From Candidatus Latescibacterota bacterium (GTDB lineage Bacteria > Latescibacterota > UBA2968 > GCA-2709665): a stretch of 64,000 nucleotides of DNA. Of this stretch, positions 13,239 to 30,175 are shown piece after piece (position 1 is the first letter of the stretch; each line of letters opens with the position of its first letter). Location of the stretch: contig OZ242180.1 in assembly GCA_965205485.1 (NCBI GenBank), positions 4,864,001 through 4,928,000 on the forward strand. Reading direction: 5' to 3'. The notes beneath the pieces were generated by a model. It searched no databases, was not told the DNA's origin, and saw nothing but the letters and a program-made list of their open reading frames with translations. The position numbers and the translations under genes are program-made.

Positions 13239-16200
13239 ATGAAAACCCGTACACGCATCGGTCTTGCACTGGCGCTTCTCTTCGCCGTCGGGGCCTTCGC
13301 CGGCCTTGCGGTGGGACCGGAACGCGTCAACCCCTACCTTGCCGCAATCCTTGGACTCCATGCGCCCGTTGCCCCACCGGCCCCTTCCGTTCCGGAAGCG
13401 AACGCCACTTCGGTTCGCGTACTCGATACCGTATCGGACGCCGGCGTGAGGTCGCACGTTGCCCGCTTTACGGAACACCGGTCGCGAGTTCCCGGATACC
13501 CCGGACACGCCGCTGCCGCGGAATACATCCGGCGCAGTTTCGAGAGCGCCGGTCTCCGGGACGTTCGCACCGAGCCGTTCGACGTCACCTCGCCCGTTGA
13601 CAAGGGCGGCAGCGTGTCGCTGTTGCGGGACAATGTCACGTTTCCCATCCACGCGATCTGGCCGAACCTCGTCAAAACCTCCACACTGCCGCGCGAAGGG
13701 GTCCGCACGCGGTTGATCTACGGCGCGACCGGGGAATTCGCCGACTTCAACGGTCATGCGCTCGAGGGCGCGGCCGTTCTCATGGAATTCAATACGCGGA
13801 ACAACTGGCTGAACGCGGCCACGCTGGGTGCGGGGCAGATCATCTTCATCGAACCGGATTCAACCTTCTATACCGAAGCCGAGCAGAAATTCCTGCAGGT
13901 GCCCAACAGCGTGGAACGATTCTGGATCGATAAAGCGTCGGGACAGGCTCTCAAGTCAATGCTCGAACAACGCGGCGAGATTGAAATCGAACTGCATGCG
14001 AGAATGGAGTGGGAGAAACAAACCGCCCACAATATTATGGGCTTCCTTCCGGGTTCCGATCCGATCCTGAAGGAACAGATCGTCGTGATCAACGCGTACT
14101 ACGACGCCATGTCCGTCGTCCCGGCACTGGCGCCCGGCGCCGAGATGGCCAGCGGCGCCGTCGCCCTGCTGGAGCTGGTCAACTATTTCAAACGATATCC
14201 CCCGAGGCGCACCGTGCTCTTTCTGGCCACTTCGGCCCACCACCTGGGCTTTCGCGGCATCTGCGATTTCCTGGGCCGCCACGCCAGAAAGGAGAGGCAT
14301 TTCGCGGCCCTGATGACCGACCCCATCGACATCCGGCTCTTCATCGGCCTGGACCTGTCGAGCCAGACCGCTCAAATCGGCGTCTGGAACAGTACGCGCA
14401 ACTTCTACTACAACCGGTTCTTCACACCCTTCGGAAAGAAATTCGTCCGCATCTCTCAGGCGATCGCACCCGCCTTCGGCCTCGACCCCGATCAGGCGCT
14501 GCTGGACGGCATCAATCCCACGGGCGGAATGACCTGGGACATGTTCATCCCCGGCGCGAACCTGAAGACCGACGGCGAAGTCGTCCTCGAAGCCGGCACG
14601 CTCGCCCTGTCCCTGGTCACGCTGAACGATGCCCGTTTCCGGGTCGATACGCCCCTGGACCGGCCGGAAGGGGTCAACTTCGGAAATCTCGCAAAACAGG
14701 TCCGCCTGATCACGGGCGTGCTGGATATCGCCCTGAACGACCCGACGCTGATCCCTGATTACCGGCTCAATCCCGACGACCGGATGCGCGGCCTGAAGGG
14801 GTTCGTGCGTACCTTTCCCAGGCGCAGCATCGTACCGGACCGGCCCAAGGCGGGCGCCATTGCCGCGCTCAGGATGGGCATCGACAAATCGGTCAAGGGC
14901 GTCCGGCGCATCTATTACGATCTTGCCGACGAAAACGGTGAATTCTACATGCCGGGAATCGCCGAACGCCGCGTCTCCGTCAGCGCCTACTTTCAGGATC
15001 CGGAGACCGGTGAGATCACGTACGCGCCGAACTACGGGCAGCAGGCGCGGATCTACCGCGGCGACTTCGACATGGACTGGTGGATCTCCAAGAGAAATAT
15101 CATCCTCTTTCCCTGTATCGCCACCGACTTCTACGATACGGTCGATCCGCGTTTCCTCACCAAACTCTCCCAGATCAGCGTCTACGGTAGCGGCAACGTC
15201 ACGCCGCAGGAATACGGGTACGCGATCGGCTTCGGCCCGACGGAACCCGTGGGTACCCTGTTCACGCGTCCGGGAGAGAGAATCAAGGTCGCGATGAGGG
15301 CCGGCGGCGTCGCGGCGGGCTCCGGCGACATCGGCATCCGCTTCCTGCTGCTCAATGCGACGAGCGCCGAGAGTGAAGAAATCGCCAGGGGCACGGGTTA
15401 TCCCACGCTCACCCACGGGTCGTTTGCGCGCACCTCCTTTCTGGCCGCGCGTGACATGTGGACCCTTAACGAAGCCCGGAAGCAGGAGATGCAGAAATAC
15501 GCCATTGAAAACCAGCGTCTGAACATGCTGCACGGCCAGGCCCGCCTCCACCTGGACATGGCCGAAGCCGCGATGTCCCAAAGTCGCTGGGACGTTTTCA
15601 TGAAACATACCCGCGCGGCCCTCGGCATCGAATCGCGCGCCTATCCGGACGTCAAGGACACGCAGAACGACGTGGTGCGCGGCGTCGTCTTTTTCATGGC
15701 CCTGGTCATCCCGTGCGCGTTCTTCGCCGAACGACTCATCTTCACCGCCGTGGACATCCGGCGACAGATCGCGGGATTTATCGGTATTTTCGTTCTCATC
15801 TGGGTCTTTCTTTCAAACGTGCATCCGGCGTTCGAGATCTCCAATCCCCTGGTCGTGCTGCTCGCCTTCGTCATTCTGGCGCTGGCGGTGTTCGTGATTT
15901 CCCTCGTTTTCAATCGTTTCAACGAAACCATGCGCCGGTTACGGGTCCCGGAAGTGCGTTTGCATGAAACCGACGTGGGTCGAATCTCCGCCTCCCTGGC
16001 GGCCTTTCAGCTCGGCATCGCAAACATGAAACGCCGCAAATTGCGCACGGCGCTTACGTTCACCACGCTCCTGCTCCTCACATTTACGGTTCTCTCGTTT
16101 ACGTCCATCACAACGGCTCTCGAATTTCGCCGGATTCCCCTGGGCACCGAGGGTCCGTACCCCGGAATGCTCATCCGCAGCAAGTTCTGGGGCCCGCTGG

Positions 16201-17774
16201 AAGACGTCGTCTACGATTATGCCGTTACCCACTTCCGGGAATCCGCGATAACGGCCCCTCGAAGCTGGTACTATACGCGGGAGAAGAAGATTATCCCGGT
16301 CGAGTCCGAAGACAGCTCAACTCACGTACTCGGCGTTCTGGGAATGACGCCTGAGGAGGCGGACGTGACCGGCATCCACAAGACACTGAAAGTCGGCAGG
16401 TGGTTCCGTCCGGGAGAATCCGCGTGCATACTGCCGGAAAAGATAGCGGATCTACTCGGCGTGGACCCGGGCCGCCTTGAAGCGTCACGCGTCCGGGTGT
16501 TCGGCGAGTCGCTGCCGGTGATCGGCCTGATCGACGCCGGGGCGTTCAGCGAACTCAAGGACCTCGATGAGGAACCCCTCAGTCCCGCCGACTTCAAGCT
16601 TACCGATGAGGAAGCCATCGAACAGATGACCACCCAGGAAACGCGGGAGAAACAGGGCCTGGAACAACCTGAAGTCGAAATCATGCCCTTCGAGCACATC
16701 AACCCCGACGACGTCCTGATCGTCCCGTACGCGTTCCTGCGCCAGGTGGGCAGCCCGCTCCAGTCGGTCGCCCTCCGGTTCGACGCCGGATCAGACGTGG
16801 AGAGCAATGTCAAGGAGCTTCTGTCCAGGCTCTCGGTTGTACTGTTCGCGGGTCTTCCGGACGCGGACGGTCGCGTCAACGTCTCGATTTTCAGTTCGCT
16901 GGGCGACACGTCGAGACGCGGGATGAGCGATCTCTTTATTCCCATCCTCATCGCCTCGCTCATCGTGCTGAATACCATGATGGGTTCCGTGTACGAACGG
17001 TTTCGGGAAATCGGCGTCTATTCCGCGGTGGGCCTGGCGCCGGTCCACGTCGCTTTCCTGTTTATCGCGGAAGCCTGCGTCTACGCCGTCCTCGGCACGG
17101 TGAGCGGCTACATGCTGGGCCAGGCCGCTGCCAAGCTGCTTCTCTGGCAGGGCTGGCTCTCGGGCGTCACGGTCAACTATTCCGCCCAGTCGGCCGTTGT
17201 TTCGTCCGCCCTGGTCATGGCCGTCGTCATCCTGTCAACCCTCTATCCTGCCAGGCAGGCATCCCGGATGGCCGTCCCGGACGTGTCCCGCCGCTGGAAG
17301 ATCCCCGAGCCGGAAGGCGACGACTGGCGTTTCGAATTCCCGTTTACGGTTGGCGGAAACGATGTATTCGGGCTCTGCGTGTTCCTGACGGACTACTTTG
17401 ACTCCCACAGCGGCGAAGCGATGGGGGCGTTCTACACGGACGGCGCCCATCTGTACGCGAAGGGCGGCGCCGGTGAGAGCGGATACGCAATCCGCACGAC
17501 CCTGTGGCTGGCGCCCTTCGATCTGGGCGTAAGCGAGGAGCTTCGCTTCGAGGCGGAACCCACCGGCCAATTCGATATCTATACCCTCACGCTCACCCTC
17601 AGGCGACGCTCGGGCGAAGTCGCGTCATGGCGGCGTGTCAACCAGGGTTTCATGAATACCCTCCGCAAGCAGTTTCTCATCTGGAGAACCGTGGACCCCG
17701 CCGAAAAAGCCGCATACCGGGAAAAAGGCATGCGGATGCTCGTCTCGGACGAACCGGAGGCGAAACCGGCCTGA
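13239..17774 (+). CDS. Large fusion: degenerate M28-peptidase-like domain + FtsX/MacB-type permease (1511 aa)
   Basis: Signal peptide; SRVPGYPG, NIMGFLPG, AYYD...APGAEMASG; ANMKRRKLRTALT; VYERFREIGVYSAVG; LYPARQASR. Confidence 0.8.
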   Translation: MKTRTRIGLALALLFAVGAFAGLAVGPERVNPYLAAILGLHAPVAPPAPSVPEANATSVRVLDTVSDAGVRSHVARFTEHRSRVPGYPGHAAAAEYIRRSFESAGLRDVRTEPFDVTSPVDKGGSVSLLRDNVTFPIHAIWPNLVKTSTLPREGVRTRLIYGATGEFADFNGHALEGAAVLMEFNTRNNWLNAATLGAGQIIFIEPDSTFYTEAEQKFLQVPNSVERFWIDKASGQALKSMLEQRGEIEIELHARMEWEKQTAHNIMGFLPGSDPILKEQIVVINAYYDAMSVVPALAPGAEMASGAVALLELVNYFKRYPPRRTVLFLATSAHHLGFRGICDFLGRHARKERHFAALMTDPIDIRLFIGLDLSSQTAQIGVWNSTRNFYYNRFFTPFGKKFVRISQAIAPAFGLDPDQALLDGINPTGGMTWDMFIPGANLKTDGEVVLEAGTLALSLVTLNDARFRVDTPLDRPEGVNFGNLAKQVRLITGVLDIALNDPTLIPDYRLNPDDRMRGLKGFVRTFPRRSIVPDRPKAGAIAALRMGIDKSVKGVRRIYYDLADENGEFYMPGIAERRVSVSAYFQDPETGEITYAPNYGQQARIYRGDFDMDWWISKRNIILFPCIATDFYDTVDPRFLTKLSQISVYGSGNVTPQEYGYAIGFGPTEPVGTLFTRPGERIKVAMRAGGVAAGSGDIGIRFLLLNATSAESEEIARGTGYPTLTHGSFARTSFLAARDMWTLNEARKQEMQKYAIENQRLNMLHGQARLHLDMAEAAMSQSRWDVFMKHTRAALGIESRAYPDVKDTQNDVVRGVVFFMALVIPCAFFAERLIFTAVDIRRQIAGFIGIFVLIWVFLSNVHPAFEISNPLVVLLAFVILALAVFVISLVFNRFNETMRRLRVPEVRLHETDVGRISASLAAFQLGIANMKRRKLRTALTFTTLLLLTFTVLSFTSITTALEFRRIPLGTEGPYPGMLIRSKFWGPLEDVVYDYAVTHFRESAITAPRSWYYTREKKIIPVESEDSSTHVLGVLGMTPEEADVTGIHKTLKVGRWFRPGESACILPEKIADLLGVDPGRLEASRVRVFGESLPVIGLIDAGAFSELKDLDEEPLSPADFKLTDEEAIEQMTTQETREKQGLEQPEVEIMPFEHINPDDVLIVPYAFLRQVGSPLQSVALRFDAGSDVESNVKELLSRLSVVLFAGLPDADGRVNVSIFSSLGDTSRRGMSDLFIPILIASLIVLNTMMGSVYERFREIGVYSAVGLAPVHVAFLFIAEACVYAVLGTVSGYMLGQAAAKLLLWQGWLSGVTVNYSAQSAVVSSALVMAVVILSTLYPARQASRMAVPDVSRRWKIPEPEGDDWRFEFPFTVGGNDVFGLCVFLTDYFDSHSGEAMGAFYTDGAHLYAKGGAGESGYAIRTTLWLAPFDLGVSEELRFEAEPTGQFDIYTLTLTLRRRSGEVASWRRVNQGFMNTLRKQFLIWRTVDPAEKAAYREKGMRMLVSDEPEAKPA

Positions 17775-17898: not shown

Positions 17899-20319
17899 AT
17901 GGCCTTTCTCGATCGCATTCGCAGGCGGAAATCCAATCCGTACCAGGAAATCGAAGAGTACCGGGATCTGCTTGATGTCCCCAAGGAGTTCGAAGAGGGC
18001 TTCAACTCCAAGACGATCCTCGGCGCACTCTTCGTTTCCGTCATCATGGTTCCGGGCAACATCTACCTGGAACTCATGGTGGGACATTCCGTCGGCGCCG
18101 CCGCCCAGTGGGTGACCATCATCCTGTTTCTGGAACTGGCCAAGCGCTCGTTCACCGTGTTGAAGAAGCAGGAACTCTACCTGCTCTACTATGTCACCAG
18201 CGCCCTGGTCGCCCGCGAAACCGGAATGTTCGAAGGCCTGCTCTGGCAGCAATACTACGTTCAGTCTCCCGCAGCAAAGCAGTTCGGCATCTCCCACCTC
18301 ATCCCCCGATGGTGGGCGCCCCCGCCCGATTCTCCCGCGCTGATCGACCGGACTTTTCTGCATCAGGACTGGCTTCTGCCCATCTCCCTGCTTGTCCTTG
18401 GGATGATCATGGGGCGCATCCAGTGGTTTACCGCGAGCTACGTGCTCTTCCGGATCACCTCCGACTACGAGCGCCTGCCGTTTCCGTTCGCGCCGATCAA
18501 CGCCCAGGGCGCCATGGCGCTCGCGGAAGAAAGCAGCGGCCAGTACAGCTGGCGATGGCGGGTCTTCAGCATCGGCGCCGTGATCGGCGTGGTATTCGGC
18601 TCCGTCTACGTGGCGGTGCCCGCCATTACCGGCGCGTTTATGGAGAGCCCGCTTCAGCTCATCCCCATCCCATGGGTGGATTTCACCCAATACACGGGAT
18701 ATTTCCTGCCGGCCACGCCGCTGGGTTTCACGCTGCACCTGGCCCCCATCTTTGCCGGGCTGCTGGCGCCCTTCTGGGCCGTCATGGGCGCATTCATCGG
18801 CGTCGCCATCCACACCGCGGCGGGCCCCATCCTGTATTCCTACGGGTACATGCCCAACTGGTATATGGGCATGGATACGATCATGACCCACTTCGTCACG
18901 GGCATCGATTTCTGGATGAGCTTCGGGATCGGCATCACCTTCGCCATCGCGATTATTGGATTCTACCAGGTCTGGACCGGCGTCCGAACCGCGCGTGTCG
19001 AGAAAAAGGAAAAGGGCAGCTGGACGCCGCCGCCCGGCCGGGGAGACTTCCGGATCTGGATCTGCATCGTGCTCTTCTGTCTTGCGAGCCTCTATACCAT
19101 AATCCTCGCCAAGGTCCTCTTCCCTGACCTCGTGAGCACCGTGCTGCTCATGTTCTTCTTCGTCTTCGCGTTCGTCTATACGCCGCTGATCTCCTTCGTC
19201 AACGCCCGGCTGGACGGGCTGGTCGGACAGAACGTCAATATCCCCTATATCAGGGAAGCCACGATCTTTCTGAGCGGGTTCAGGGGTATCGAAATCTGGT
19301 TTGTGCCCTTCCCCCTGGCCAACTGGGGCGCACAGGCCGAAACGTTCCGTCAGATCGAACTCACGGGCTCGAAATTCACCGGTATCCTGAAGGCTGAGGT
19401 CTTCATGATCCCGCTGATCCTTCTGACCAGTTTCATGTACTGGTCCTATATCTGGAAGCTGGCGCCCATTCCCTCGTCCTCCTACCCCTACGTCCAGATG
19501 ATGTGGCCGCTGCGGGCGCTCCAGAGCAGCGTCTGGTACACCGGCACCATGCAGGGCGAGGTGGAGCACGACCCGTCCTCCGGAGCGGTATCCTTCCAGC
19601 CGAGCAATCTGCCCGACGGCAACTGGTGGTACTGGCGTGCCCGCGCCTCGGCCGACGCGCACATCGATGACCACGAACAACGCACTTACGGACCGTGGTC
19701 CCGCGTTGGGTATTTCTATACGAACTTCAAGAGTACCGAAAAGCCGCTCGTACCGTCGCTTCCGGTGGACCGGTCGGCGCCGGACATTTCCGAAGCGTTG
19801 CGGCTGGGCCTGCCTTCGGCGCCGGCGTTGCGGAGTCCCGATGACGGAAGCCACGCGGACAACCCAAACCCCAACCTGGTCGTGCTCGCCGCGCGGGACC
19901 CGGAAGGCCGGGAGCTCGTGTATCAGTTCGAAGTGGACCAGGTGCCCTCCTTCGACGGTTCCTTTCTGCAGAGTTCGGACGACGAGCCGATCCTGTTCGA
20001 AGCCATCAAGCCGGTTGTGATCGCCATCGGACTCGCCGTCGGCCTGGTCTCGTTCGTGGTTCTGTCCGTCCTGGGCCTGCCGGTCCTGCTCATCTTCGGA
20101 TACATACGGAGTCTGACGAGCATTCCCCACGTGATGATCACCGAGATCATCGGTGCGCTCCTCGCGCGGTACTATTTCTGGAAGCGCTTCGGCAGACAGC
20201 AATGGCGCCTCTACGCGGCGGTGTTGTACGTCGGATTCTCGGTGGGCATGTCCCTGGTGGGCATGGCCTCCGTCTCCATTGCAATGATACAAAAGGCCGT
20301 CTCGGTACTGTTGTTCTGA
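17899..20319 (+). CDS. OPT-like peptide transporter with inserted FN3/Ig-like domain
   Basis: FEEGFNSKTILGALF...AAQWVTIILFLE; SDYERLPFP; many TM helices; soluble insert at about 19594-19977. Confidence 0.7.
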   Translation: MAFLDRIRRRKSNPYQEIEEYRDLLDVPKEFEEGFNSKTILGALFVSVIMVPGNIYLELMVGHSVGAAAQWVTIILFLELAKRSFTVLKKQELYLLYYVTSALVARETGMFEGLLWQQYYVQSPAAKQFGISHLIPRWWAPPPDSPALIDRTFLHQDWLLPISLLVLGMIMGRIQWFTASYVLFRITSDYERLPFPFAPINAQGAMALAEESSGQYSWRWRVFSIGAVIGVVFGSVYVAVPAITGAFMESPLQLIPIPWVDFTQYTGYFLPATPLGFTLHLAPIFAGLLAPFWAVMGAFIGVAIHTAAGPILYSYGYMPNWYMGMDTIMTHFVTGIDFWMSFGIGITFAIAIIGFYQVWTGVRTARVEKKEKGSWTPPPGRGDFRIWICIVLFCLASLYTIILAKVLFPDLVSTVLLMFFFVFAFVYTPLISFVNARLDGLVGQNVNIPYIREATIFLSGFRGIEIWFVPFPLANWGAQAETFRQIELTGSKFTGILKAEVFMIPLILLTSFMYWSYIWKLAPIPSSSYPYVQMMWPLRALQSSVWYTGTMQGEVEHDPSSGAVSFQPSNLPDGNWWYWRARASADAHIDDHEQRTYGPWSRVGYFYTNFKSTEKPLVPSLPVDRSAPDISEALRLGLPSAPALRSPDDGSHADNPNPNLVVLAARDPEGRELVYQFEVDQVPSFDGSFLQSSDDEPILFEAIKPVVIAIGLAVGLVSFVVLSVLGLPVLLIFGYIRSLTSIPHVMITEIIGALLARYYFWKRFGRQQWRLYAAVLYVGFSVGMSLVGMASVSIAMIQKAVSVLLF

Positions 20320-20322
20320 GCA

Positions 20323-20351
20323 TTGGCTTTGGTTCCGCCCGCATCTATTAT
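20323..20351 (+). promoter_or_regulatory. Candidate promoter of BMC operon
   Basis: TTGGCT-N17-TATTAT. Confidence 0.5.
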
Positions 20352-20406: not shown

Positions 20407-20964
20407 ATGTCAGGCGCGATCGGCATGATCGAAGTCGAAGGCGTTGCCGGGATTATTCTCGCGTCGGACGCTGCTTGCAAGGCCGCCGGAGTGGACCTCC
20501 TGGGCTGGGAGTCCATCGGCGGATTCACCACAGTCTTTCTCGGCGGATCCATCAGCAGGGTGGCAACCGCGCTCAAGAGCGGCGAACAAGCAGCCAGAGA
20601 GGTGGCGGGGCACGTGGTGGCGGCGCCGATGACACACCCGGAACCCGCCTGCCGGGATTACGTTTCGAATGAAATCGCCACGGAGCGGCGCACGCCGACC
20701 GGCGCGCTGGGTCTGATCGAGACGAGAGGATACGGCGCGCACGTCACCGCCAACGACAATATGGTGAAGGCGGCCGACGTCCGGGTCTTCAACGTGCTCA
20801 CCGTACACAACCGGGTGGTCTGCTCCCTTATACTTGGGGACGTGGCTTCCTTGACCGAGGCCCTGCCCGCGGGTCGCGCGAGCGTCGAGACAGGAGAGAA
20901 TTTCCTCGGCGCCGCCCTCATCCCCAAGCCCCTGCCCGACGTCCTGCGGGCATTCGGCCCCTGA
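20407..20964 (+). CDS. BMC shell protein with two BMC (Pfam00936) domains
   Basis: AIGMIEVEG...DAACKAAGV and ALGLIETRG...DNMVKAADV...GDVASL...IPKP. Confidence 0.92.
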   Translation: MSGAIGMIEVEGVAGIILASDAACKAAGVDLLGWESIGGFTTVFLGGSISRVATALKSGEQAAREVAGHVVAAPMTHPEPACRDYVSNEIATERRTPTGALGLIETRGYGAHVTANDNMVKAADVRVFNVLTVHNRVVCSLILGDVASLTEALPAGRASVETGENFLGAALIPKPLPDVLRAFGP

Positions 20965-20972
20965 GCGCCGTC

Positions 20973-22133
20973 GTGTCCGCACGAAATCATGCCCTGGGGA
21001 TTCTGGAGACCCGCGGCATGACCGCGCTTGTCGCGGCCCTGGACGCCATGCTGAAAACCGTGGACGTCAGGGTCCTGGGGCGTCACGGCGTTGGATCCGG
21101 CTGGCTGACCGTCGTGATCGAAGGCGTCGTTTCGGACGTGGAGGCCGCCATTCGGATCGGGCGATCCGAGGCCGAGAACCACGGCGAGTTGATCAGCGCC
21201 GACGTGATCGCCGGCCCGGCCCCGGGCGCCCTCGCGTCGATGCCGCACATGGCGGGCGCGGGCACGTCGAAACCGGTCGGCTCGCAGGCGATGGGCATCC
21301 TCGAAACACGCGGAATGGTACCCCTCATCCGCGGCGCCGACGCCATGATCAAGAGCGCGCCCGTCCACGTCGCCGGCTGGACTTCCATTGGCGGCGCGCT
21401 GGTTCATCTCGTGGTCCGGGGCGATATATCCTCGGTCCAGACTGCCCTTCAGACCGGTAAAGCGTGTGCGGATGAAGTCGGGGAAGTCTACGCGACCCTG
21501 GCGATTCCCAGCCCTGAAGCGGGTATCGCCCCATTGCTTCCGGATCCGCCGATTTCAAACGGGCGCAAGGAAGACGCCGGGGCGCTCGGTATTCTTGAAA
21601 CAACGGGTTACGTGTCCGCGGTCGGCGGATCGGACGCGATGGTCAAAGCGGCCGACGTCGACCTTGTGCGCCTCGTCATCGCCAGCGGAGGCCGGGTGGA
21701 CGCGCTGGTGAAAGGCGAACTCGACGCGGTCCAGGCGGCCGTGGAAGCCGGTATCGATGGCGCGCGGGAGGCCGGGGAACTGAATGCCTCCTGTGTCGTT
21801 TCCCGCCCGTCTTCCGACATCATGGCCTGCTTCGGCGGGAACACCGTCAGGAATACGTCAGGCTTGCATCAGGCGATGGGACTGATCGAAACGCGCAGCA
21901 CCGTGGCCCTGGTCAAAGCCGTGGATCAGATGTTGAAGTCCGCGGACGTGGAATACGAGGGCCGGTACAAAGTGGGGTACTTTCTCACGGCAAGCGTCGT
22001 CCGGGGAGACGTCGGCGCGGTACGTGCCGCCCTGAATGTCGGCGCCGGGGAAGCGGAGAGGTACGGCGAACTGGTGTCTGCACACCTTATACCCCATCCC
22101 TATCCGGCGCTGGAAGAACGGCTGATCCACTGA
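20973..22133 (+). CDS. BMC shell protein with four tandem BMC domains
   Basis: Four repeats of A[LM]G[IL][LI]ET...D.M.K...G[DVE]...V.AA...P; GTG start without clear SD. Confidence 0.92.
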   Translation: MSARNHALGILETRGMTALVAALDAMLKTVDVRVLGRHGVGSGWLTVVIEGVVSDVEAAIRIGRSEAENHGELISADVIAGPAPGALASMPHMAGAGTSKPVGSQAMGILETRGMVPLIRGADAMIKSAPVHVAGWTSIGGALVHLVVRGDISSVQTALQTGKACADEVGEVYATLAIPSPEAGIAPLLPDPPISNGRKEDAGALGILETTGYVSAVGGSDAMVKAADVDLVRLVIASGGRVDALVKGELDAVQAAVEAGIDGAREAGELNASCVVSRPSSDIMACFGGNTVRNTSGLHQAMGLIETRSTVALVKAVDQMLKSADVEYEGRYKVGYFLTASVVRGDVGAVRAALNVGAGEAERYGELVSAHLIPHPYPALEERLIH

Positions 22134-22161: not shown

Positions 22162-23331
22162 ATGATCCGTATTGACGATGCGGTTGTTACCGAACAATTG
22201 CTCAAGGACAGACTGGGCGCTGAGCGGGAAGTCGAAATCTGCCCGCGGGCGAAGCTGACGCCGCTGGCGCTGGACTATCTGGCGGCCAACCGGGTCCAGG
22301 TATCCAGAAGAGAGGCGGCGGCCGCCGGTCCGCGGACTTCAGCGCCGGCCGCCCGTCGGAAATCCGGCGAACGGAAAGAATTCAAGGGCATCTTCTGCCC
22401 CAATATCGTCATTTTCGACAGCAATGACCGGATCAACTACGCGGAAATGGAGCGATATGTCAACTGGCTCATCGAAGCCGGCATCCACGGGTTGTATCCC
22501 AATGGCAGCACGGGCGAATTCGTGCGTCTTTCCAGCGACGAGCGCAAGGAGGTCGTGCGCCTGGTCACGAACGTCAACCGTGGGCGCGTGCCCGTTCTGG
22601 CCGGCGCGAGCGAAGCCAACCTCCGCGACGTGCTCAGAATGAGCGAATACTACGCCGGCATCGACGTCGACGCCATTTCTCTCGTACCCCCGTACTATTA
22701 CGAGATCTCGGACACCAGCCTCTTCGAGTACTTCGCTGAGATCGCGAGACAGACGCCTCTCGACGTCCTGTTATACAATATCCCCCAGTTCACGCAGGAA
22801 CTCACGCTGGACATCATGGAACAGTTGCTTCCCTTCGAGCGAATCATGGGTACCAAAGATTCCAGCCGGGATATGCCGCGGCTGATCAACACCATGCATC
22901 GGCTGCGGGCGCAGCGCCCAGACTACGTGGTCCTGGTCGGCTGCGAGGAAATCCTGTGTCCATCCATTATGATGGGCGCCAGCGGGGGCACGATCGCGAC
23001 CTCCGGCATCATTCCCGAGGTCATTGTGGATATCTATGAAAAGACGCTTGCCGGCGACCTCGAGCGTGCACGCGGCATGCAATGCCGCATCCTGGACCTC
23101 ATCAACCTGATGCTGCTGGGTGTGAACTTTCCGGAGGGATTCAAAACCGGTGTGGCCGTGCGCGGATTCGACGTCGGACCTCCGCGGCAGGCCATGAGCG
23201 ACGAGGAAAAGGAATATCTCCTCAAGCTTGAGTCCCAGATCAGCTGCATCCTCAAGGATATGGGTTACGACGTGAATGGTGCGCGGGCGTGTCCCGTAAC
23301 CGACCTGCCGCCAATTGTCGACCGTACCTGA
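22162..23331 (+). CDS. DHDPS/NAL family class I aldolase/dehydratase with N- and C-terminal extensions (probable BMC cargo)
   Basis: GSTGE, PVLAG, PPYY, LYNIP, Schiff-base K in GTKDSS; extra N-terminal KLTPLALDYL domain. Confidence 0.85.
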   Translation: MIRIDDAVVTEQLLKDRLGAEREVEICPRAKLTPLALDYLAANRVQVSRREAAAAGPRTSAPAARRKSGERKEFKGIFCPNIVIFDSNDRINYAEMERYVNWLIEAGIHGLYPNGSTGEFVRLSSDERKEVVRLVTNVNRGRVPVLAGASEANLRDVLRMSEYYAGIDVDAISLVPPYYYEISDTSLFEYFAEIARQTPLDVLLYNIPQFTQELTLDIMEQLLPFERIMGTKDSSRDMPRLINTMHRLRAQRPDYVVLVGCEEILCPSIMMGASGGTIATSGIIPEVIVDIYEKTLAGDLERARGMQCRILDLINLMLLGVNFPEGFKTGVAVRGFDVGPPRQAMSDEEKEYLLKLESQISCILKDMGYDVNGARACPVTDLPPIVDRT

Positions 23332-23410: not shown

Positions 23411-24355
23411 ATGGCTGAAAACGCGCAGCGGCACAACCTCGTGGACCCGTTCAACCTGGATGCCGGCGACGGCTACGTCTGGCTGAAAGGCAACCTCCAC
23501 TCCCACACGACGAACTCCGACGGCAAGGCGTCGCCCCAGGAACGTCTGGACGGCTACGTGAGCCAGGGGTACGACTTCCTTTGTCTCTCGGACCACTACC
23601 GGATCACCCGGATCGATTCCGTGGATTGTCCGGACGACTTCGTGCTCATTCAGGGCGCCGAACTGCATCCGGACAATCCGTTCGGCGGACAGAAACACCA
23701 TTTTCTCTGCCTGAACATCCACGAGGACCTGGACTCGGAGAACATGCCGCCCCAGCACGTGATCGACGCGGTTCAGGAACAGGGGGGCAGCACGTGGCTT
23801 GCCCACCCGTACTGGAGTTCGGTCAACATCCTGAGGGACACCGTTCCGCTCACGGGATTTGCCGGCGTGGAGGTATTCAACACAACGTGCCGACGCGCGG
23901 GCAGAGGGGAATCCGGCGTTCATTGGGACGACTGGATGGACGTGGAGAACAGGCTGTATCCCGCCCTGGCCAACGACGACTCCCACGCCCTCGAATCGGA
24001 TCATCACGATACCTATGGGGGCTGGACGATGGTACGCGTGAAGGACCGGTCTCCAGGGGCCATTCTCGACGCGCTCGAACGGGGCGCGAGCTATTCGAGC
24101 ACCGGCGCCCAGATTCGGAACATCACCCTGCGAAGAAGCGACGAGGAGAAACGGCCGGTCGAGGCCGCCGTCGAATGCTCCGAGGCCAGGTGTATCCTGG
24201 CCGTTTGCGATACGTTCGGAACCGAATACAGGAATTCCGGCAAATCCTTTACGAGCGCCACGTTCAACCTGCGGCCGGGCGCACGCTGGGTACGTTTCGA
24301 AGTGATCGGAACGGACGGCTCGAAAGCCTGGTCCAACCCGTTCGACCTCACCTGA
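23411..24355 (+). CDS. PHP-family (CehA/McbA-like) metallohydrolase
   Basis: WLKGNLHSHTTNSDG, LSDH, GAE, AHPYWS, VEVFN, NDDSH, AWSNPF. Confidence 0.85.
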   Translation: MAENAQRHNLVDPFNLDAGDGYVWLKGNLHSHTTNSDGKASPQERLDGYVSQGYDFLCLSDHYRITRIDSVDCPDDFVLIQGAELHPDNPFGGQKHHFLCLNIHEDLDSENMPPQHVIDAVQEQGGSTWLAHPYWSSVNILRDTVPLTGFAGVEVFNTTCRRAGRGESGVHWDDWMDVENRLYPALANDDSHALESDHHDTYGGWTMVRVKDRSPGAILDALERGASYSSTGAQIRNITLRRSDEEKRPVEAAVECSEARCILAVCDTFGTEYRNSGKSFTSATFNLRPGARWVRFEVIGTDGSKAWSNPFDLT

Positions 24356-24368
24356 GGCTGGCGTCGCG

Positions 24369-25106
24369 ATGGGACTCATCCTGACACCCGAACAGGTGGC
24401 AGCGTACCGCAAGGACGGTTACTTACTGGTACCGGATCTGCTGACGCCGCCTGAAATCGACGCCTTCCTGGAAGCGCAGGCGGAAACGGTGGCGCCGGAA
24501 ATCCTGGAACTCGGCCTGCGCAGGCACACCGCGGATCCGCAATGGCGTTACCTGGCGTCGCATCCCCGTGTCTCCGGAATCGCGTCTCTGCTGCTGCAGG
24601 GTCCGGCGATGATCGTCCAGACCATGTACATGGAAAAGGCGCCGCGCGGGGGCACGGGTATCGCGCTCCATCAGGACGCACACTATATCAGGAACGAACC
24701 CGGCACGCTCATGGCGTGCTGGCTTGCGTTGAGCGATACCGACAGCAGCAACGGCGGGCTCTGCGTCGCCGCCGGCAGCCACCTGGCCCCCCTCCGGAAT
24801 ACCCGTCCCCCTCGAGACAGCAGCGAACACGCCTCCTGGGTGAAAGATTACGCCATGCGAGGACCCGACGGCACGGAGTGGGCCGAAACCATGCACTCGC
24901 ACGAGGTCGCCGGCGTAAGCCGCGATGAACTCACCTTCCTTACGGTTCCGCGAGGATCGGGCGTCTTCTTTACCGGCAGAACCATCCACGGCTCTTTCGC
25001 GAACCGGTCCATGGGCAGGCCCCGGCTTGCATTCGCCATCCACTATGTGAGAGAGGGTACGTGGGTGTTTCGCCGGGACATCCAGGACCTCGCGCCGGCA
25101 AACTGA
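24369..25106 (+). CDS. PhyH family dioxygenase
   Basis: YRKDGYL, LHQD, NGGLCVAAGSH, IHGSFANRS. Confidence 0.9.
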   Translation: MGLILTPEQVAAYRKDGYLLVPDLLTPPEIDAFLEAQAETVAPEILELGLRRHTADPQWRYLASHPRVSGIASLLLQGPAMIVQTMYMEKAPRGGTGIALHQDAHYIRNEPGTLMACWLALSDTDSSNGGLCVAAGSHLAPLRNTRPPRDSSEHASWVKDYAMRGPDGTEWAETMHSHEVAGVSRDELTFLTVPRGSGVFFTGRTIHGSFANRSMGRPRLAFAIHYVREGTWVFRRDIQDLAPAN

Positions 25107-25119
25107 AGGGACCTCCACC

Positions 25120-26088
25120 ATGAAACGCGTTGCAAAGCCGGAAGGCGAGTACAATATCGTCATCGAAGACGTCCCCGTACCTGAAGTCTCGCCCACGGAA
25201 GTGCTCATCCGGGCGGAGTGCAGTCTGATCAGCCGCGGTTCCGAGATCTGGCGGCGTTATATCCGTCCCGAAGCCATCGACCATCAAGCCATGGGCTACT
25301 CGTTCGTGGGAGACGTTGTCGAGGTCGGCGCCCGCGTGGACGGCTTCTCCATCGGCGACCGTGTGGCGGCTCTTGCGCCGCACGCGGAGTACGTGGCCGT
25401 CGAAGTCGTGGACTCACCCCACCGGGCCCCGGTTGTGCATCTTCCGGACGCGGTCTCCTCGGAAGCCGCGACGTTCTGGCCGCTGAGCACCAGTTCCGTT
25501 CTCTGGATGCGCGAAATCGAGGCCCGCAAGGAAGACACGGTGGCTATACTGGGTCAGGGTCTCGTCGGCTCGATCTGCATGCAGGCGCTGAACGCGGAAG
25601 TGAACCCCCGGGTGATCGCTGTCGACGCGCTTCCCCTCCGGTGCGAACTGGCCGCAAGCCTGGGGGCGGACCACGTGGTGGACGCATCGCGCGAGGATCC
25701 CGTAAGGGCCGTCAAAGATCTGACGGGCGGCGCAGGCGTGGAGATCGCGGTGGAGGCGGTGGGCGGCCGCGCCGGGGCGGCCGCGTTCGCGCAGGCGCAG
25801 GATATGGTGAAACGAAAAGGCCTGATCCAGGTGATCGGCCTGTATGAGGACGAGCCACTACCGCTCGACTCCGGAAAGATCCAGGGCCGGCGGATTGTCG
25901 GCGGGTACTCGGACGGCGGCAGACGTCCTTCGGGCTCCGACCGCGCCCTGCAGCTTCTCGCCCAGAATAAGATCCGCGCCGAAGCAATGATTTCCCACCG
26001 ATTCCCCTACCAGGAAGCGGCAGAGGCCTTCGACCTGCTGTATACGCGCCTGGGCGAAACGATGGGCGTCGTACTTGTATGGAAGTGA
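25120..26088 (+). CDS. MDR family (zinc-binding-type) dehydrogenase
   Basis: SLISRGSE, MGYS, GQGLVG, GADHVVD, ISHRFP. Confidence 0.85.
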   Translation: MKRVAKPEGEYNIVIEDVPVPEVSPTEVLIRAECSLISRGSEIWRRYIRPEAIDHQAMGYSFVGDVVEVGARVDGFSIGDRVAALAPHAEYVAVEVVDSPHRAPVVHLPDAVSSEAATFWPLSTSSVLWMREIEARKEDTVAILGQGLVGSICMQALNAEVNPRVIAVDALPLRCELAASLGADHVVDASREDPVRAVKDLTGGAGVEIAVEAVGGRAGAAAFAQAQDMVKRKGLIQVIGLYEDEPLPLDSGKIQGRRIVGGYSDGGRRPSGSDRALQLLAQNKIRAEAMISHRFPYQEAAEAFDLLYTRLGETMGVVLVWK

Positions 26089-26169
26089 CTGCAGGTGACG
26101 CTGGGCCGGGAAAATGCCGGCTTCCGACCCCGATCGGCCAGCCCATGCATGTCGTAATCCGGAGGTTTT

Positions 26170-27066
26170 GTGAAAAACGGCTTCTATAAGGGCCACGGTC
26201 TGGGCAACGACTACATCGTCATGGACCCGGCGGAACTGGAATTTGAACTCACGCCCGGCAATATCCGCAACATCTGCGATCGCAACCGCGGTATCGGCGG
26301 CGATGGCATCCTCACCCTGGAACCCGGGAATGGCGCCGACTTCGGCCTGCGCATCCTGAATCCCGACGGCAGCGAGGCCGAAAAGTCGGGCAACGGCCTG
26401 CGCATCTTCGCCAGGTTCCTCCACGCCACCGGTCGGACGCGAAAACGCGACTTCACGGTGGACACGATCGGCGGCCGCGTGGAGATCCGGGTGCACCTGG
26501 ACCATCACGGCGATGCCAGCCTCGCGACCGTCGAGATGGGACAGGCCGACTTCGATCCCGTCGCGCTGCCGTGTACGTTGACGGGGGGCGAGCTCATCGA
26601 ACGGCCGATCACCGCCGCCGGCCGCGAACTGAGATTCACGGGCGTCAGCGTGGGGAATCCCCACTGCGTTATCTTCAAAGCCGCGCACGAGTCCTGGACC
26701 CGCGACGACCTGCTCGAACTCGGCCCCGCCCTGGAGAATCACGAACTCTTTCCCAATCGCATCAACGTGCAACTGGCCGTACCCACGGGTCCGAAGGAAA
26801 TCTTCATCCTCATCTGGGAACGCGGCGCCGGCGAGACGCAGGCATCCGGTTCCTCGTCCTGCGCGGCGGCGAGCGCGGCTGTCCGGCTGGGTCTGGCGGC
26901 ATCTCCTGTAACCGTAAACGCGCCGGGCGGCGCCCTCCACGTCGCCGTCGACCCCCGGTTCCACCTGACCATGAAGGGGCCGGTCGCGGAGGTCGCCCTG
27001 GGGGCCCTGAGTCCGGCGTTCGTCAGGGAACTTCAGGACGACAACCGGGTTGACGCCTCCGGGTAA
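26170..27066 (+). CDS. dapF: Diaminopimelate epimerase family, Ser/Ser variant
   Basis: FYKGHGLGNDY, GIGGDG, NPDGSEAEKSGNGLR, VGNPH, FPNRINV, WERGAGETQASGS. Confidence 0.85.
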   Translation: MKNGFYKGHGLGNDYIVMDPAELEFELTPGNIRNICDRNRGIGGDGILTLEPGNGADFGLRILNPDGSEAEKSGNGLRIFARFLHATGRTRKRDFTVDTIGGRVEIRVHLDHHGDASLATVEMGQADFDPVALPCTLTGGELIERPITAAGRELRFTGVSVGNPHCVIFKAAHESWTRDDLLELGPALENHELFPNRINVQLAVPTGPKEIFILIWERGAGETQASGSSSCAAASAAVRLGLAASPVTVNAPGGALHVAVDPRFHLTMKGPVAEVALGALSPAFVRELQDDNRVDASG

Positions 27067-27077
27067 GGCGAAATTTC

Positions 27078-28190
27078 CTATGCCACCCGGTATTTCTCCA
27101 GGGTCTTCTCGTTGATGGTCACACCAAGACCGGGGCCCTCCGGCACAGCCACGTGTCCGTCGACGACTTCGAAGCGTTCGCGCGTCAGTTCGTGGCGCAG
27201 CGGCGATTCCGACATGCAATACTCGAACATCTCCCCGCCGGGCGCCGCGGCGAGCGCGTGAAGCGACGCGGCGATCGTAATCCCGCTCTTGAAACTGTGG
27301 TTCACGACCCTTGCATGGCAGCGGTGCGCCATCCTTCCCACCTCCACCATGGTCGAAATCCCGCACCGCCCAGGGTCGGGCTGTACCCAGTCCAGTCCGC
27401 CTTCCGCCACTAGACGCTCGAATGCGTCGAGCCGCGCTTCCGCTTCACCCGCCGCGATGGGAACGGGACTTTCCTCAGACAACCTCGCGTATCCGCGCAG
27501 GTCGGACGGGTGCAGCGGCTCTTCGAGCCAGAACGGACGGAACTCCGCGAACCGGCGCGCCCGCTTCAGGCCCGTCTTCCAGTCCCATACCTGCCCCGCG
27601 TCGATCAGCACGTCCACCCCGTCTCCGACGCCCCGGCGGGCCTCCCTGACCAGGGCGATATCGGTCTCCTCGTCCTCCCCCATCGGCCCCCAGCCGAACT
27701 TGACCGCGGTAAAGCCCTCCCCCGCAAACCTCCGACCGAGTTCTGCAGTCTGCGCGGGCGAATCGCCGAACAGAATCGAACAATACGCCCGGAAGCGCTT
27801 TTTGTAGGGCCCGCCCAGAAGCCGGTAGACCGGCACATCGCATGCCTTGCCTGCAATATCCCAGAGCGCCTGATTGACACCCGCCATGGCGTGCCGCCCC
27901 ACGCCATCGCCGCCGTAGTAGTTCGTCGCGTCCGTCATTCGTTGCATACACGCTTCCACCGCCAGCGGGTCCTCAAGGTAAAGCGCATTTGCCAGGCCGT
28001 TGCAGATCTGGTGCGACAGGGGCGCATCCACGACGGCCTTGACCGCGGTCGGACAGGAATCCACCTCTCCCCAGCCCGTGAGTCCGGCGTCTGTTTCGAC
28101 CTTGATCAAACAGGTATCCTGCGTACCGTCGCAGGTTTCCGTGACGTGAGGGAGCCGCAACACCATCGCGGTAACGCGAGTGATCTTCAT
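27078..28190 (-). CDS. Mandelate racemase/muconate lactonizing enzyme family (sugar-acid dehydratase-like)
   Basis: GLTGWGE, ALWDIAGK, D/E/E metal ligands in IDAG, LEEP, AGE; PGLGV. Confidence 0.9.
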   Translation of the reverse strand: MKITRVTAMVLRLPHVTETCDGTQDTCLIKVETDAGLTGWGEVDSCPTAVKAVVDAPLSHQICNGLANALYLEDPLAVEACMQRMTDATNYYGGDGVGRHAMAGVNQALWDIAGKACDVPVYRLLGGPYKKRFRAYCSILFGDSPAQTAELGRRFAGEGFTAVKFGWGPMGEDEETDIALVREARRGVGDGVDVLIDAGQVWDWKTGLKRARRFAEFRPFWLEEPLHPSDLRGYARLSEESPVPIAAGEAEARLDAFERLVAEGGLDWVQPDPGRCGISTMVEVGRMAHRCHARVVNHSFKSGITIAASLHALAAAPGGEMFEYCMSESPLRHELTRERFEVVDGHVAVPEGPGLGVTINEKTLEKYRVA

Positions 28191-28408
28191 TTCAAGCCTC
28201 CGGATTTCGAAATCGGTCCGCGCCACGGCGCCAATGCCGAGCGCAATCCCGGGTGTACAGCAGGTTCCGACTGCGCATGATACCCACCCCGCTTCGGCCT
28301 GTCAATCCCCATGCCGGGATTGTGCGCGGGCACCAGAAACGGGTTGCACGGGCGCGCCGTTCACCGTAGATTATCCGCGTCCTGCACTGCACCCTAGGGG
28401 ATGCCGCT

Positions 28409-29170
28409 ATGCCAGCCGTCCAGAACCTGAGCGAAACCTACGAAGCCAATGGCGTGCTGCCTCGAATCGACGTCTTCTCCGAATCCGAGATCGGCGCATT
28501 CAGGGCGCAGTTCGACGAACTCGAAGCCAGAGAAGGCAGAGACGTCTGCCAGGTGGGCCTGCAGTCCCGGCACTTCGACGAGGAATTCATCTGGCGACTG
28601 GCCGCGGACGCGCGCATTCTGGACGTCATGGAACAGGCCATGGGTGAAGACATCCTGCTGCTGGCCACGCACTTTTTCTGCAAGTACCCCGCCCGGGCCG
28701 AAAAGCACTTTGTCGCGTGGCACCAGGACGTCACGTACTGGGGCCTGAAGCCGCCGCTGGCGCATACGGCCTGGATCGCCATCGACGACAGCGACGCGGA
28801 AAACGGGTGCATGCGCGTCATCCCCGGGTCCCACAAGAGCGGGATCGTCACCCACGGCACATCGGAACGCGCGGGAAACCTGCTGAGCATCAACCAGGAA
28901 ATCCCGGACGAACTCGTCGACACCAGCCGCGCGATCGACCTGGAACTCAGCGCCGGCCAGATGTCGGTCCACAGCGGCCAGCTCTTCCACGCGAGCATGC
29001 CCAATACCTCGAACCGGCGGCGTTGCGGCCTTACCGTCCGCTTTATCCCGCCCGAAGCCAGGCAGGTCGAATCCAACTCGATCGGCCAGGACTGGCGGCC
29101 CATCCTGCTGCGCGGCGTGAACCGATACACGCACCATCCCCTCTTTCCCGTGCCGTTTCCAGTACCATAG
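28409..29170 (+). CDS. PhyH family dioxygenase
   Basis: FFCK, WHQDVTYW, ENGCMRVIPGSH, FHASMPNTS..RR. Confidence 0.9.
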   Translation: MPAVQNLSETYEANGVLPRIDVFSESEIGAFRAQFDELEAREGRDVCQVGLQSRHFDEEFIWRLAADARILDVMEQAMGEDILLLATHFFCKYPARAEKHFVAWHQDVTYWGLKPPLAHTAWIAIDDSDAENGCMRVIPGSHKSGIVTHGTSERAGNLLSINQEIPDELVDTSRAIDLELSAGQMSVHSGQLFHASMPNTSNRRRCGLTVRFIPPEARQVESNSIGQDWRPILLRGVNRYTHHPLFPVPFPVP

Positions 29171-29181
29171 AGAGAATCACG

Positions 29182-30051
29182 ATGGCGAAACGCAGGGTTG
29201 TCGTCACCGGCGCGGCCGGGTATATCGCCGGACGGAGTCTGCCGGTCCTCAGAGAGCGCTATGATCTCTGCCTGCTGGACGTGCGAGAGACGGACAGAAA
29301 CGGCAATGAGGTGGAGGACATCGTCCGGACCGACCTTCTCGACCGGGACCGGAATGCGTATCGGGAGCATTTTTCGGACACGGACGCGGTGATACACTGC
29401 GGTTTCACCCGTGCCAACGCGCCCGAGGACCAGTTCCGGGCGGAATCCGACAACATCGCCATGGCCTATAACGTCTACCAGACCTGTCTGGAAGCAAACG
29501 TCCGCAGGGTGGTCGTCATCAGCTCCAATCACGCCACCGACTTCTACGAGACGCTCATCTGGTCCGGCCGCATGGAATTCGTGACACCGGACATGCGCCC
29601 GCTTTCCGACAACTTCTACGGCTGGGCGAAGGCCTCGTACGAACTGCTGGGGTTCGCGTTTGCGGCGGGCAAGGTCGGAAACGGCAGGAAGCTTCAGAAC
29701 ATCCAGCTGCGGATCGGCGGTCCCCGAGACACCGTGGCCGATAATCTCAGGACGGACAACCTGAAAGGCATGCACCGCAGCCTCGGGGCGTATCTGAGCG
29801 CACGCGACCAGACCCAGCTTCTCATCAAGAGCATCGAGACCGAAAACATCGAAGACGAGAACGGCATCCCCTTTCAGATCTTCTACGGCATCAGCGGAAA
29901 CAGCCACAATTTCTGGAGTATCGCCAACGCCCGCAAGCTCATCGGCTACGAACCGGAAGACAACAGCCTGATCCGGTTTGCCGACAGGATCGCACCCGTT
30001 CTTGCTGCCGCGAAGCGGGACAAGGAAAGGGGCGTAAACGCCGACCAGTAA
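29182..30051 (+). CDS. NAD-dependent epimerase/dehydratase (uronate dehydrogenase-like)
   Basis: VVTGAAGYIA, ISSNHA, YGWAK, LRIG, FYGISGN; start trimmed to ATG 29182. Confidence 0.82.
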   Translation: MAKRRVVVTGAAGYIAGRSLPVLRERYDLCLLDVRETDRNGNEVEDIVRTDLLDRDRNAYREHFSDTDAVIHCGFTRANAPEDQFRAESDNIAMAYNVYQTCLEANVRRVVVISSNHATDFYETLIWSGRMEFVTPDMRPLSDNFYGWAKASYELLGFAFAAGKVGNGRKLQNIQLRIGGPRDTVADNLRTDNLKGMHRSLGAYLSARDQTQLLIKSIETENIEDENGIPFQIFYGISGNSHNFWSIANARKLIGYEPEDNSLIRFADRIAPVLAAAKRDKERGVNADQ

Positions 30052-30175
30052 GCCGCTCGGGTCTCCGTGTCGATCCGCGTGACAGGGAAGACCCCCGCGC
30101 ATGGCCCGGAAACCGATCCGGACATCCGGAAACCCGGATACGCGGGGTCGACGGGTTCCTTGAAAGGTCAATCGC

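Follow-up and report, generated by a model that had tools for sequence, protein, structure and literature searches.

We describe here two adjacent genes in a 64,000-nucleotide stretch of DNA (the window) from a Candidatus Latescibacterota bacterium (assembly GCA_965205485.1, contig OZ242180.1, positions 4,864,001 to 4,928,000 of the forward strand), which encode two and four copies, respectively, of the bacterial microcompartment (BMC) shell domain. The two genes are probably the halves of one hexagonal shell tile, a 1:1 ring of six different domains in the order a-b-c-d-e-f, that is an accessory of a MUF2/PVM-like metabolosome. To our knowledge, the structurally characterised microcompartment tiles are all homo-oligomers with six-, three- or five-fold symmetry, their pores and faces being repeats of one sequence. 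The domain content of the two genes, their strict pairing, their position-specific conservation and the context of their loci are direct observations; the 1:1 ring is what we infer. The genes and their domains lie in the window as follows:

20407..20964, plus strand: gene of the two-domain shell protein (domains a and b); open reading frame of 185 residues with an ATG start, PF00936 twice
20413..20670, plus strand: domain a, residues 3-88 of the two-domain protein; edge motif DAACK, pore loop ESIGG
20701..20961, plus strand: domain b, residues 99-185 of the two-domain protein; edge motif DNMVK, pore loop TVHNR, invariant R136
20973..22133, plus strand: gene of the four-domain shell protein (domains c, d, e and f); open reading frame of 386 residues with a GTG start, PF00936 four times
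20985..21242, plus strand: domain c, residues 5-90 of the four-domain protein; edge motif DAMLK, pore loop GVGSG
21282..21539, plus strand: domain d, residues 104-189 of the four-domain protein; edge motif DAMIK, pore loop SIGGA
21576..21836, plus strand: domain e, residues 202-288 of the four-domain protein; edge motif DAMVK, pore loop IASGG followed by the invariant R241
21867..22130, plus strand: domain f, residues 299-386 of the four-domain protein; edge motif DQMLK, pore loop KVGYF, conserved C-terminal tail

The original prediction for this stretch had counted two BMC domains in the first gene and four in the second, and the Pfam profile PF00936 (gathering cut-off 24.5 bits) returns the same numbers, with two matched stretches in the 185-residue protein (E = 6.8e-32, 109.7 bits) and four in the 386-residue protein (E = 4.7e-77, 254.4 bits), so that the latter does carry four real BMC domains; each of the six is above the cut-off also in a six-frame scan of the whole genome. 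The edge motifs and pore loops that had been quoted for the six domains are all present in the translations, and the six loops indeed differ from each other. As the matches follow the profile without rearrangement, from position 1 to 75 of 75, and the canonical strand-helix-strand-strand-helix-strand succession is seen four times in the AlphaFold2 model of the four-domain chain, none of the domains a-f is circularly permuted. The 185-residue protein thus has the exactly two non-permuted PF00936 domains per chain that define BMC-T(s), whereas the 386-residue protein, with four, falls outside this class. The best partial matches of the pair in NCBIfam are CcmO, EutM, CsoS1 and PduT, all below their own cut-offs. 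We also considered that the 386-residue frame might be an artefact of a GC-rich open frame, which extends over 486 codons here, and rejected this, as relatives with as little as 48% identity keep the GTG start, the length and all four domains.

For the four-domain protein, at least 370 homologues were obtained at E ≤ 1e-10; the 120 best listed are 366-424 residues long, and the named ones among them come from metagenome-assembled genomes of Gemmatimonadota and Latescibacterota. At 50% clustering, the family reduces to about one representative plus fragments. Scanning one genome per species, we collected 69 loci, of which five with a contig end inside the genes (L063, L076, L078, L079 and L080) were dropped. 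In all 64 complete loci that remained, the two-domain gene is found immediately upstream of a complete four-domain gene and on the same strand, and in none are the two fused; the expectation that a four-domain gene always sits beside a two-domain gene therefore held throughout, with no unpaired four-domain homologue among these loci. The two reading frames overlap by 1-13 nucleotides (nt) in 44 of the 64 pairs and are separated by 1-14 nt in 19 and by 175 nt in one, the gap in the window being 8 nt. Judged from the sequences, the overlap is the pattern of translationally coupled, presumably equimolar partners, and together with the short gap seen here it points to co-transcription of the two genes.

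The same pairing is found at the level of genomes. In a survey of 168 genomes of the phylum (thresholds of E ≤ 1e-30 for the two-domain and E ≤ 1e-60 for the four-domain protein), 84 have a match to the two-domain protein and 83 to the four-domain protein, the latter all among the former. The sole genome with an unpaired match (G095, 85% complete) is one where a contig end truncates that match at residue 160. The two matches adjoin on one contig in 80 of these 83 genomes, and in the other three, all fragmented assemblies (G044, G123 and G160), they are on different contigs; in G096 (7% contamination), an additional match to the two-domain protein is found on a short contig. This co-occurrence fits one obligate pair.

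We aligned the two-domain protein with its family (21 sequences, 50-96% identity) and, likewise, the four-domain protein with 21 relatives. In a tree of 170 domain sequences from 21 loci, domains a-f fall into six clades, one per position and each with 21 of 21 members, at supports of 1.0 (a), 0.999 (b), 0.979 (c), 0.894 (d), 0.987 (e) and 0.998 (f). The Asp-x-x-x-Lys motif at the edge of shell domains, and its lysine in particular, has an established role in tile-to-tile contacts, and both of its residues are invariant across the 21 sequences at every position: D21/K25 (a), D117/K121 (b), D24/K28 (c), D123/K127 (d), D221/K225 (e) and D318/K322 (f). The pore loops also have invariant residues of their own, namely W34, S36, G38 and G39 (a) and R136 (b) in the two-domain protein, and G41, G43 and W44 (c), G140, L143 and H145 (d), S238, G239, G240 and R241 (e) and G335, L338 and T339 (f) in the four-domain protein, with Y336 of domain f nearly invariant. 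Since each position has its own clade and its own invariant loop and edge residues, the six loops appear to be under purifying selection at fixed positions, which is what a fixed-order ring would predict and which is hard to reconcile with interchangeable subunits. The four inter-domain linkers are alike, at about 20 residues each, and none of them looks like a special link between tiles.

Structure prediction is consistent with this picture. The four-domain chain alone is modelled by AlphaFold2 as one confident body (pLDDT 89.4, pTM 0.88), in which residues 201-386, corresponding to the e-f pair, superpose on the tandem-domain chain 6ner_b over 177 residues (Z 28.1, rmsd 1.1 Å); Foldseek likewise matches 6NER chains of 182-186 residues to two adjacent domains (TMt 0.89-0.91, 38-42% identity). 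By this superposition, at least the e-f pair would have the neighbour geometry of a real tile. The complex prediction covered the 1:1 pair, each chain with its alignment of 21 relatives, and used three unrelated proteins as controls. As had been anticipated for the 1:1 pair, the predicted ring closes, with a score of 0.77 against 0.00 for the best of the three controls, thereby passing a mark that 116 of the 157 solved complexes attain, as against 2 of the 215 mismatched pairs, counts that are a rough guide here because our own alignments were used. The runs share at least 94% of their contacts, with a partner pLDDT of at least 88. In the model, domain a (residues 7-85) contacts domain f (308-365) and domain b (107-138) contacts domain c (8-92), so that the two-domain chain bridges the first and the last domain of the four-domain chain. 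In both contacts, the start of helix 1 of one domain packs against the strand 2-3 face of the next, and owing to this shared geometry the modelled ring closes in a single direction, a-b-c-d-e-f. Residues at the predicted inter-chain interface are more conserved than the rest (0.76 versus 0.59 and 0.74 versus 0.61; permutation p ~0.0002 and ~0.008). The complex model supports, rather than demonstrates, binding of the two chains.

The genome encodes eight BMC domains only, these being a-f and two BMC-H proteins at 2.638 and 2.645 Mb, and has no other multi-domain BMC protein; three BMC-P (PF03319) are found at 2.642-2.645 Mb. The corresponding main locus (L081, 2.63-2.65 Mb) comprises PduL (PF06130), an aldehyde dehydrogenase (AldDh, PF00171), a class II aldolase (PF00596), an acetate kinase, the three PF03319 and the two PF00936 proteins, and is devoid of BMC-T. 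With BMC-P, PduL and the aldehyde dehydrogenase all at this distant locus, the locus of the pair is a satellite of a metabolosome that oxidises aldehydes. One of the two BMC-H proteins (L081:7648-8094, at 2.638 Mb, minus strand) is 148 residues long, has a C-terminal extension of about 60 residues and possibly corresponds to the catalog type 'H_darkrose'. Supplementary file 4 of the 2021 BMC catalog describes a locus type, MUF2, with AldDh, PTAC, a pfam00596 aldolase and a BMC-P triplet, in which an uncharacterised Cys-rich protein with a C-terminal encapsulation peptide begins with the same N-terminal domain as a pfam00701 class I aldolase (PMC8217296). All four of the former components are present in the main locus, with PduL as the PTAC, and by them this locus matches the MUF2 type; the aldolase encoded in the window (see below) fits the description by its N-terminal domain (PMC8217296). 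Across the 168 genomes of the phylum, BMC-P is found in 146, of which 83 have the pair and 63 do not, and one pair-bearing genome, 78% complete, shows no BMC-P; the tile is thus optional in BMC-P-bearing genomes.

Directly downstream of the pair follows an aldolase gene with two recognisable parts:

22162..23331, plus strand: class I aldolase of the DHDPS/NAL family (PF00701; Pfam E = 1.3e-55, residues 74-361), a likely cargo or partner of the tile
22162..22320, plus strand: N-terminal domain of the aldolase, about 50 residues followed by a variable Pro/Ala-rich linker, conserved in the aldolase alignment

Of the 62 loci whose sequence extends far enough, 58 have the aldolase at this place; at 65-100% identity across loci, it is conserved more strongly than the shell proteins. 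The solved structures nearest to it are those of YagE, 2-keto-3-deoxy-sugar-acid (KDG) aldolases, DHDPS and N-acetylneuraminate lyases (NAL), and all NCBIfam equivalogs stay below their cut-offs for it. Its residue K232, within a GTKDSS motif, is invariant in 17 sequences, and by analogy we take it to be the catalytic Schiff-base lysine. For the N-terminal domain, Pfam returned nothing up to E = 10, and a search of its own genome returned the aldolase's own copy and no second one. In an AlphaFold2 model of the aldolase that is poor overall (pLDDT 61.2, pTM 0.49, from a 17-row alignment), this domain is built as strand-helix-strand-helix-strand with block-mean pLDDT of 65-77, residues 51-71 being below 50; with modest confidence, it would be a small α/β unit and not a single amphipathic helix.

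The same N-terminal domain recurs on the other side of the pair. In 46 of the 64 loci, a Cys-rich protein of 148 residues is encoded directly upstream of the two-domain gene (as in L027:5545-5991), whose N-terminus is 44% identical to that of the aldolase over 48 residues (in L027) and is followed by a Cys-rich middle and a helical C-terminus; the protein has no Pfam match and is missing from the genome of the window. It fits the Cys-rich MUF2 protein described in the catalog supplement (PMC8217296). As these 46 loci include all four without the aldolase, at least one gene with the shared N-terminal domain, be it the aldolase or the Cys-rich protein, flanks the pair in all 64 loci, which suggests that the domain is functionally tied to the tile. 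In four loci (L031, L040, L071 and L074), the aldolase is replaced downstream by a gene with a GxGxxG-type dinucleotide-binding start, probably that of an FAD/NAD-dependent oxidoreductase.

In the arrangement that we favour, one two-domain chain (a-b) and one four-domain chain (c-d-e-f) would close a single ring, which would insert into shell facets through its six conserved lysine edges as any hexamer does, and whose central pore would be lined by six different, individually conserved loops. Such a pore would bear two invariant arginines, contributed by the opposite domains b and e, together with a Tyr-Phe aromatic pair from f, and may be suited to small anions (pyruvate or keto-deoxy sugar acids, for example), the putative substrates or products of the aldolase. 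The tile would be an optional accessory of the aldehyde-oxidising MUF2/PVM-like metabolosome, whose core is encoded 2.2 Mb away, and would travel with the class I aldolase.

Other arrangements of the two proteins have to be weighed against this one. The two-domain protein has the standard architecture of a tandem shell protein and could form a BMC-T homotrimer by itself, while three four-domain chains would supply twelve domains, enough for two rings that lie side by side, thereby stapling tiles, or on top of each other, stacked double rings being known for BMC-T(dp) (introduction of PMC8217296). We regard such separate assembly as unlikely: it would make the strict co-occurrence and the frame overlap needless, would turn six distinct conserved pore loops into mixed, undefined pores, and is difficult to match with linkers that are all equally short, at about 20 residues, with domains that are non-permuted, unlike those of the stacking BMC-T(dp), and with a complex model that puts the two-domain chain exactly into the gap between c and f. 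The four-domain chain could also be completed by two BMC-H subunits encoded at the main locus, or four such subunits could complete the two-domain chain, giving promiscuous rings of variable composition; the genome does encode two BMC-H proteins, mixed hexamers of BMC-H paralogues are known from CcmK3/CcmK4, and domains c and f are closest to the single-domain H of related loci. Yet 63 genomes of the phylum have BMC-P, and presumably BMC-H too, but neither gene of the pair, both of which are gained or lost jointly, and where b meets c and f meets a the signature residues do not vary and are particular to their positions, which leaves little probability for rings of this kind. We give very little credence to an assembly other than a shell (sheets, tubes or a scaffold) by which the aldolase would be organised outside the compartment. 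The distance of 2.2 Mb to the BMC-P and core enzyme genes would fit it, as would the sheets and tubes that BMC-H alone forms on expression; however, all six edge lysines are invariant, BMC-P is present in 83 of the 84 pair-bearing genomes (the exception being the 78% complete one), and many related loci have the pair within the main locus, beside AldDh, PduL, BMC-P, BMC-T and BMC-H.

Several observations weigh against a 1:1 ring. The pass of the complex model may reflect a likeness to solved BMC hexamers and trimers, which are abundant among known structures, so that any BMC domains might be modelled as a ring, and its controls were unrelated proteins and not other BMC proteins or assemblies of three two-domain or three four-domain chains; conservation of the interface would be expected for homomeric rings too. 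No six-domain single chain was found among the 120 best homologues (the longest having 424 residues), the 150 best cluster representatives or the 64 loci, the matches of 569 and 661 residues among the cluster representatives carrying only two and one BMC domains, respectively. Three-domain BMC proteins exist as well, so a second gene is not in every case required to make up an unusual number of domains. On balance, it is the joint presence and absence of the two genes, their position-specific conservation, the equally short linkers and the bridging contacts in the model that lead us to prefer a single 1:1 tile to separate homo-oligomers, completion by BMC-H and assembly outside the shell.

The relationships between the six domains point to how such a pair may have arisen. 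By profile-profile scores and in the tree, a pairs with d (support 0.954) and b with e (0.873), while c and f are closest to each other and to single-domain BMC-H. In 46 of the 64 related loci, a gene with tandem BMC domains (T1-T2) and a gene of a single-domain BMC-H (Hs) are found a little upstream of the pair (as in L027:4705-5540); both are missing from the genome of the window. Among T1, T2 and Hs, the best match of a and d is T1, that of b and e is T2, and that of c and f is Hs, to which they score 143 and 148 at identities of 51% and 49%, respectively. The deep nodes of the domain tree are weak, with supports of 0.37-0.83, and the simplest reading of these similarities would be that a T+H module was duplicated (T-H-T-H) and that the last three genes (H-T-H) were fused, yielding the 2 + 4 arrangement. 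A trace of a two-fold pattern would persist in the resulting ring, where d lies across from a, e from b and f from c. The original prediction had proposed a 1:1 pseudo-hexamer with a fully asymmetric pore; pairing, the six clades and the complex model support the pseudo-hexamer, but with a~d, b~e and c~f the words 'fully asymmetric' call for some qualification. Three PF00936 domains are found in 14 cluster representatives of about 283-330 residues (P0127, P0129, P0133, P0134, P0136-P0140, P0146, P0164 and P0169-P0171); two copies of such a protein would make six domains, and a two-fold pseudohexamer is possible there.

The proteins themselves are not new. Quadruple linear fusions are mentioned, and called very unusual, in the supplement of the 2021 catalog, where no assembly model accompanies them, and the main text of the catalog names six shell-protein types only and does not discuss the quadruple fusion (PMC8217296). 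The MUF2 entries of the supplement agree with our loci in belonging to a Gemmatimonadetes group, in having Ts_hazel entries of 187-194 residues and in their locus content, and a homologue of the four-domain protein (P0099, 56% identical) has a locus tag next to that of a Ts_hazel entry (PMC8217296). In architecture, size, phylum and N-terminal domain, the pair fits the catalog's Ts_hazel (double) and large H_blurple (quadruple) proteins, an assignment made by description only (PMC8217296). In contrast to what we describe, the catalog entries list both proteins without an obligate pairing, a 2 + 4 = 6 count or a single tile (PMC8217296). We found no paper that treats double and quadruple proteins as partners or as one tile, subscription journals and bioRxiv supplements lying outside the search; while the quadruple fusion is already known from the 2021 supplement, we found its assembly logic in no paper.

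Several known shell proteins offer parallels to the pair. BMC-T(s) proteins of the PduT and CcmO type also carry non-permuted PF00936 domains head to tail and form pseudohexamers, and PduT structures are among our fold matches; they have two domains, however, and assemble as homotrimers with three-fold symmetry, whereas here four domains are fused, two different chains would be needed and no symmetry would be left. The engineered Haliangium ochraceum shell in 6NER provides the best structural match to adjacent domains of the four-domain model, but its tandem chain, which we take to be a BMC-H duplication, is an engineered fusion of two identical domains, as opposed to six diverged domains in two natural chains. 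The CcmK3/CcmK4 hexamers of β-carboxysomes resemble the proposed tile in being built from more than one gene product, in their satellite locus and in their proposed role in permeability tuning. Their single-domain subunits mix in variable ratios, whereas order and stoichiometry would here be fixed by covalent linkage. The permuted shell proteins (BMC-H(p), BMC-T(sp) and BMC-T(dp)) differ from domains a-f, which are without circular permutation. The idea of satellite loci for shell proteins is given in the catalog (PMC8217296).

The pair is surrounded in the window by genes of narrower conservation. Upstream, on the plus strand, lie a 668-residue protein with DUF6785 and DUF6784 (11145-13151), a 1511-residue protein with a peptidase M28 match and an FtsX-like permease domain (13239-17774) and an 806-residue, multi-pass membrane-like protein with no Pfam match (17899-20319), the latter two being conserved upstream of the pair in the closest relatives only (13-14 loci). 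Downstream, positions 23411-31300 encode a CehA/McbA-type metallohydrolase, two PhyH-family dioxygenases, a Zn-dependent dehydrogenase, a DAP-epimerase-fold protein and two enolase-superfamily (MR/MLE) enzymes; this cluster is conserved in close relatives only (12-16 loci) and may be a catabolic route for acid sugars or amino-acid derivatives that feeds the aldolase. The 87-nt gap 5' of the two-domain gene contains one further feature:

20323..20351, plus strand: weak promoter-like site, TTGGCT-17-TATTAT, 9/12 matches

Promoter-like sites around the pair are no commoner than in shuffled sequences (2 found, 2.3 expected).

A ring of six different domains would have one unique face and could dock exactly one copy of the N-terminal domain shared by the aldolase and the Cys-rich protein. 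The tile might then be a single-site adaptor that combines one cargo enzyme with a tailored, arginine-lined pore, a proposal that we make tentatively and hold to be doubtful. As corollaries of this proposal, the products of the ancestral T+H gene pair in MUF2 loci would assemble into mixed 2:2 rings of their own, and three-domain BMC proteins could be a dimeric version of a fixed-order heteromeric tile. If it were true, fixed-order heteromeric tiles would be a wider, so far unrecognised principle of shell construction.

If the 1:1 tile is real, every pore-lining loop and every face is open to separate tuning by evolution. For shell engineers, it would be a scaffold with six individually addressable positions, for example for one cargo anchor or one designed gate per tile, which synthetic tandem fusions have only begun to approach. 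As the tile travels with a specific aldolase, it would also be of use in working out what the MUF2 metabolosomes of Gemmatimonadota and Latescibacterota do.

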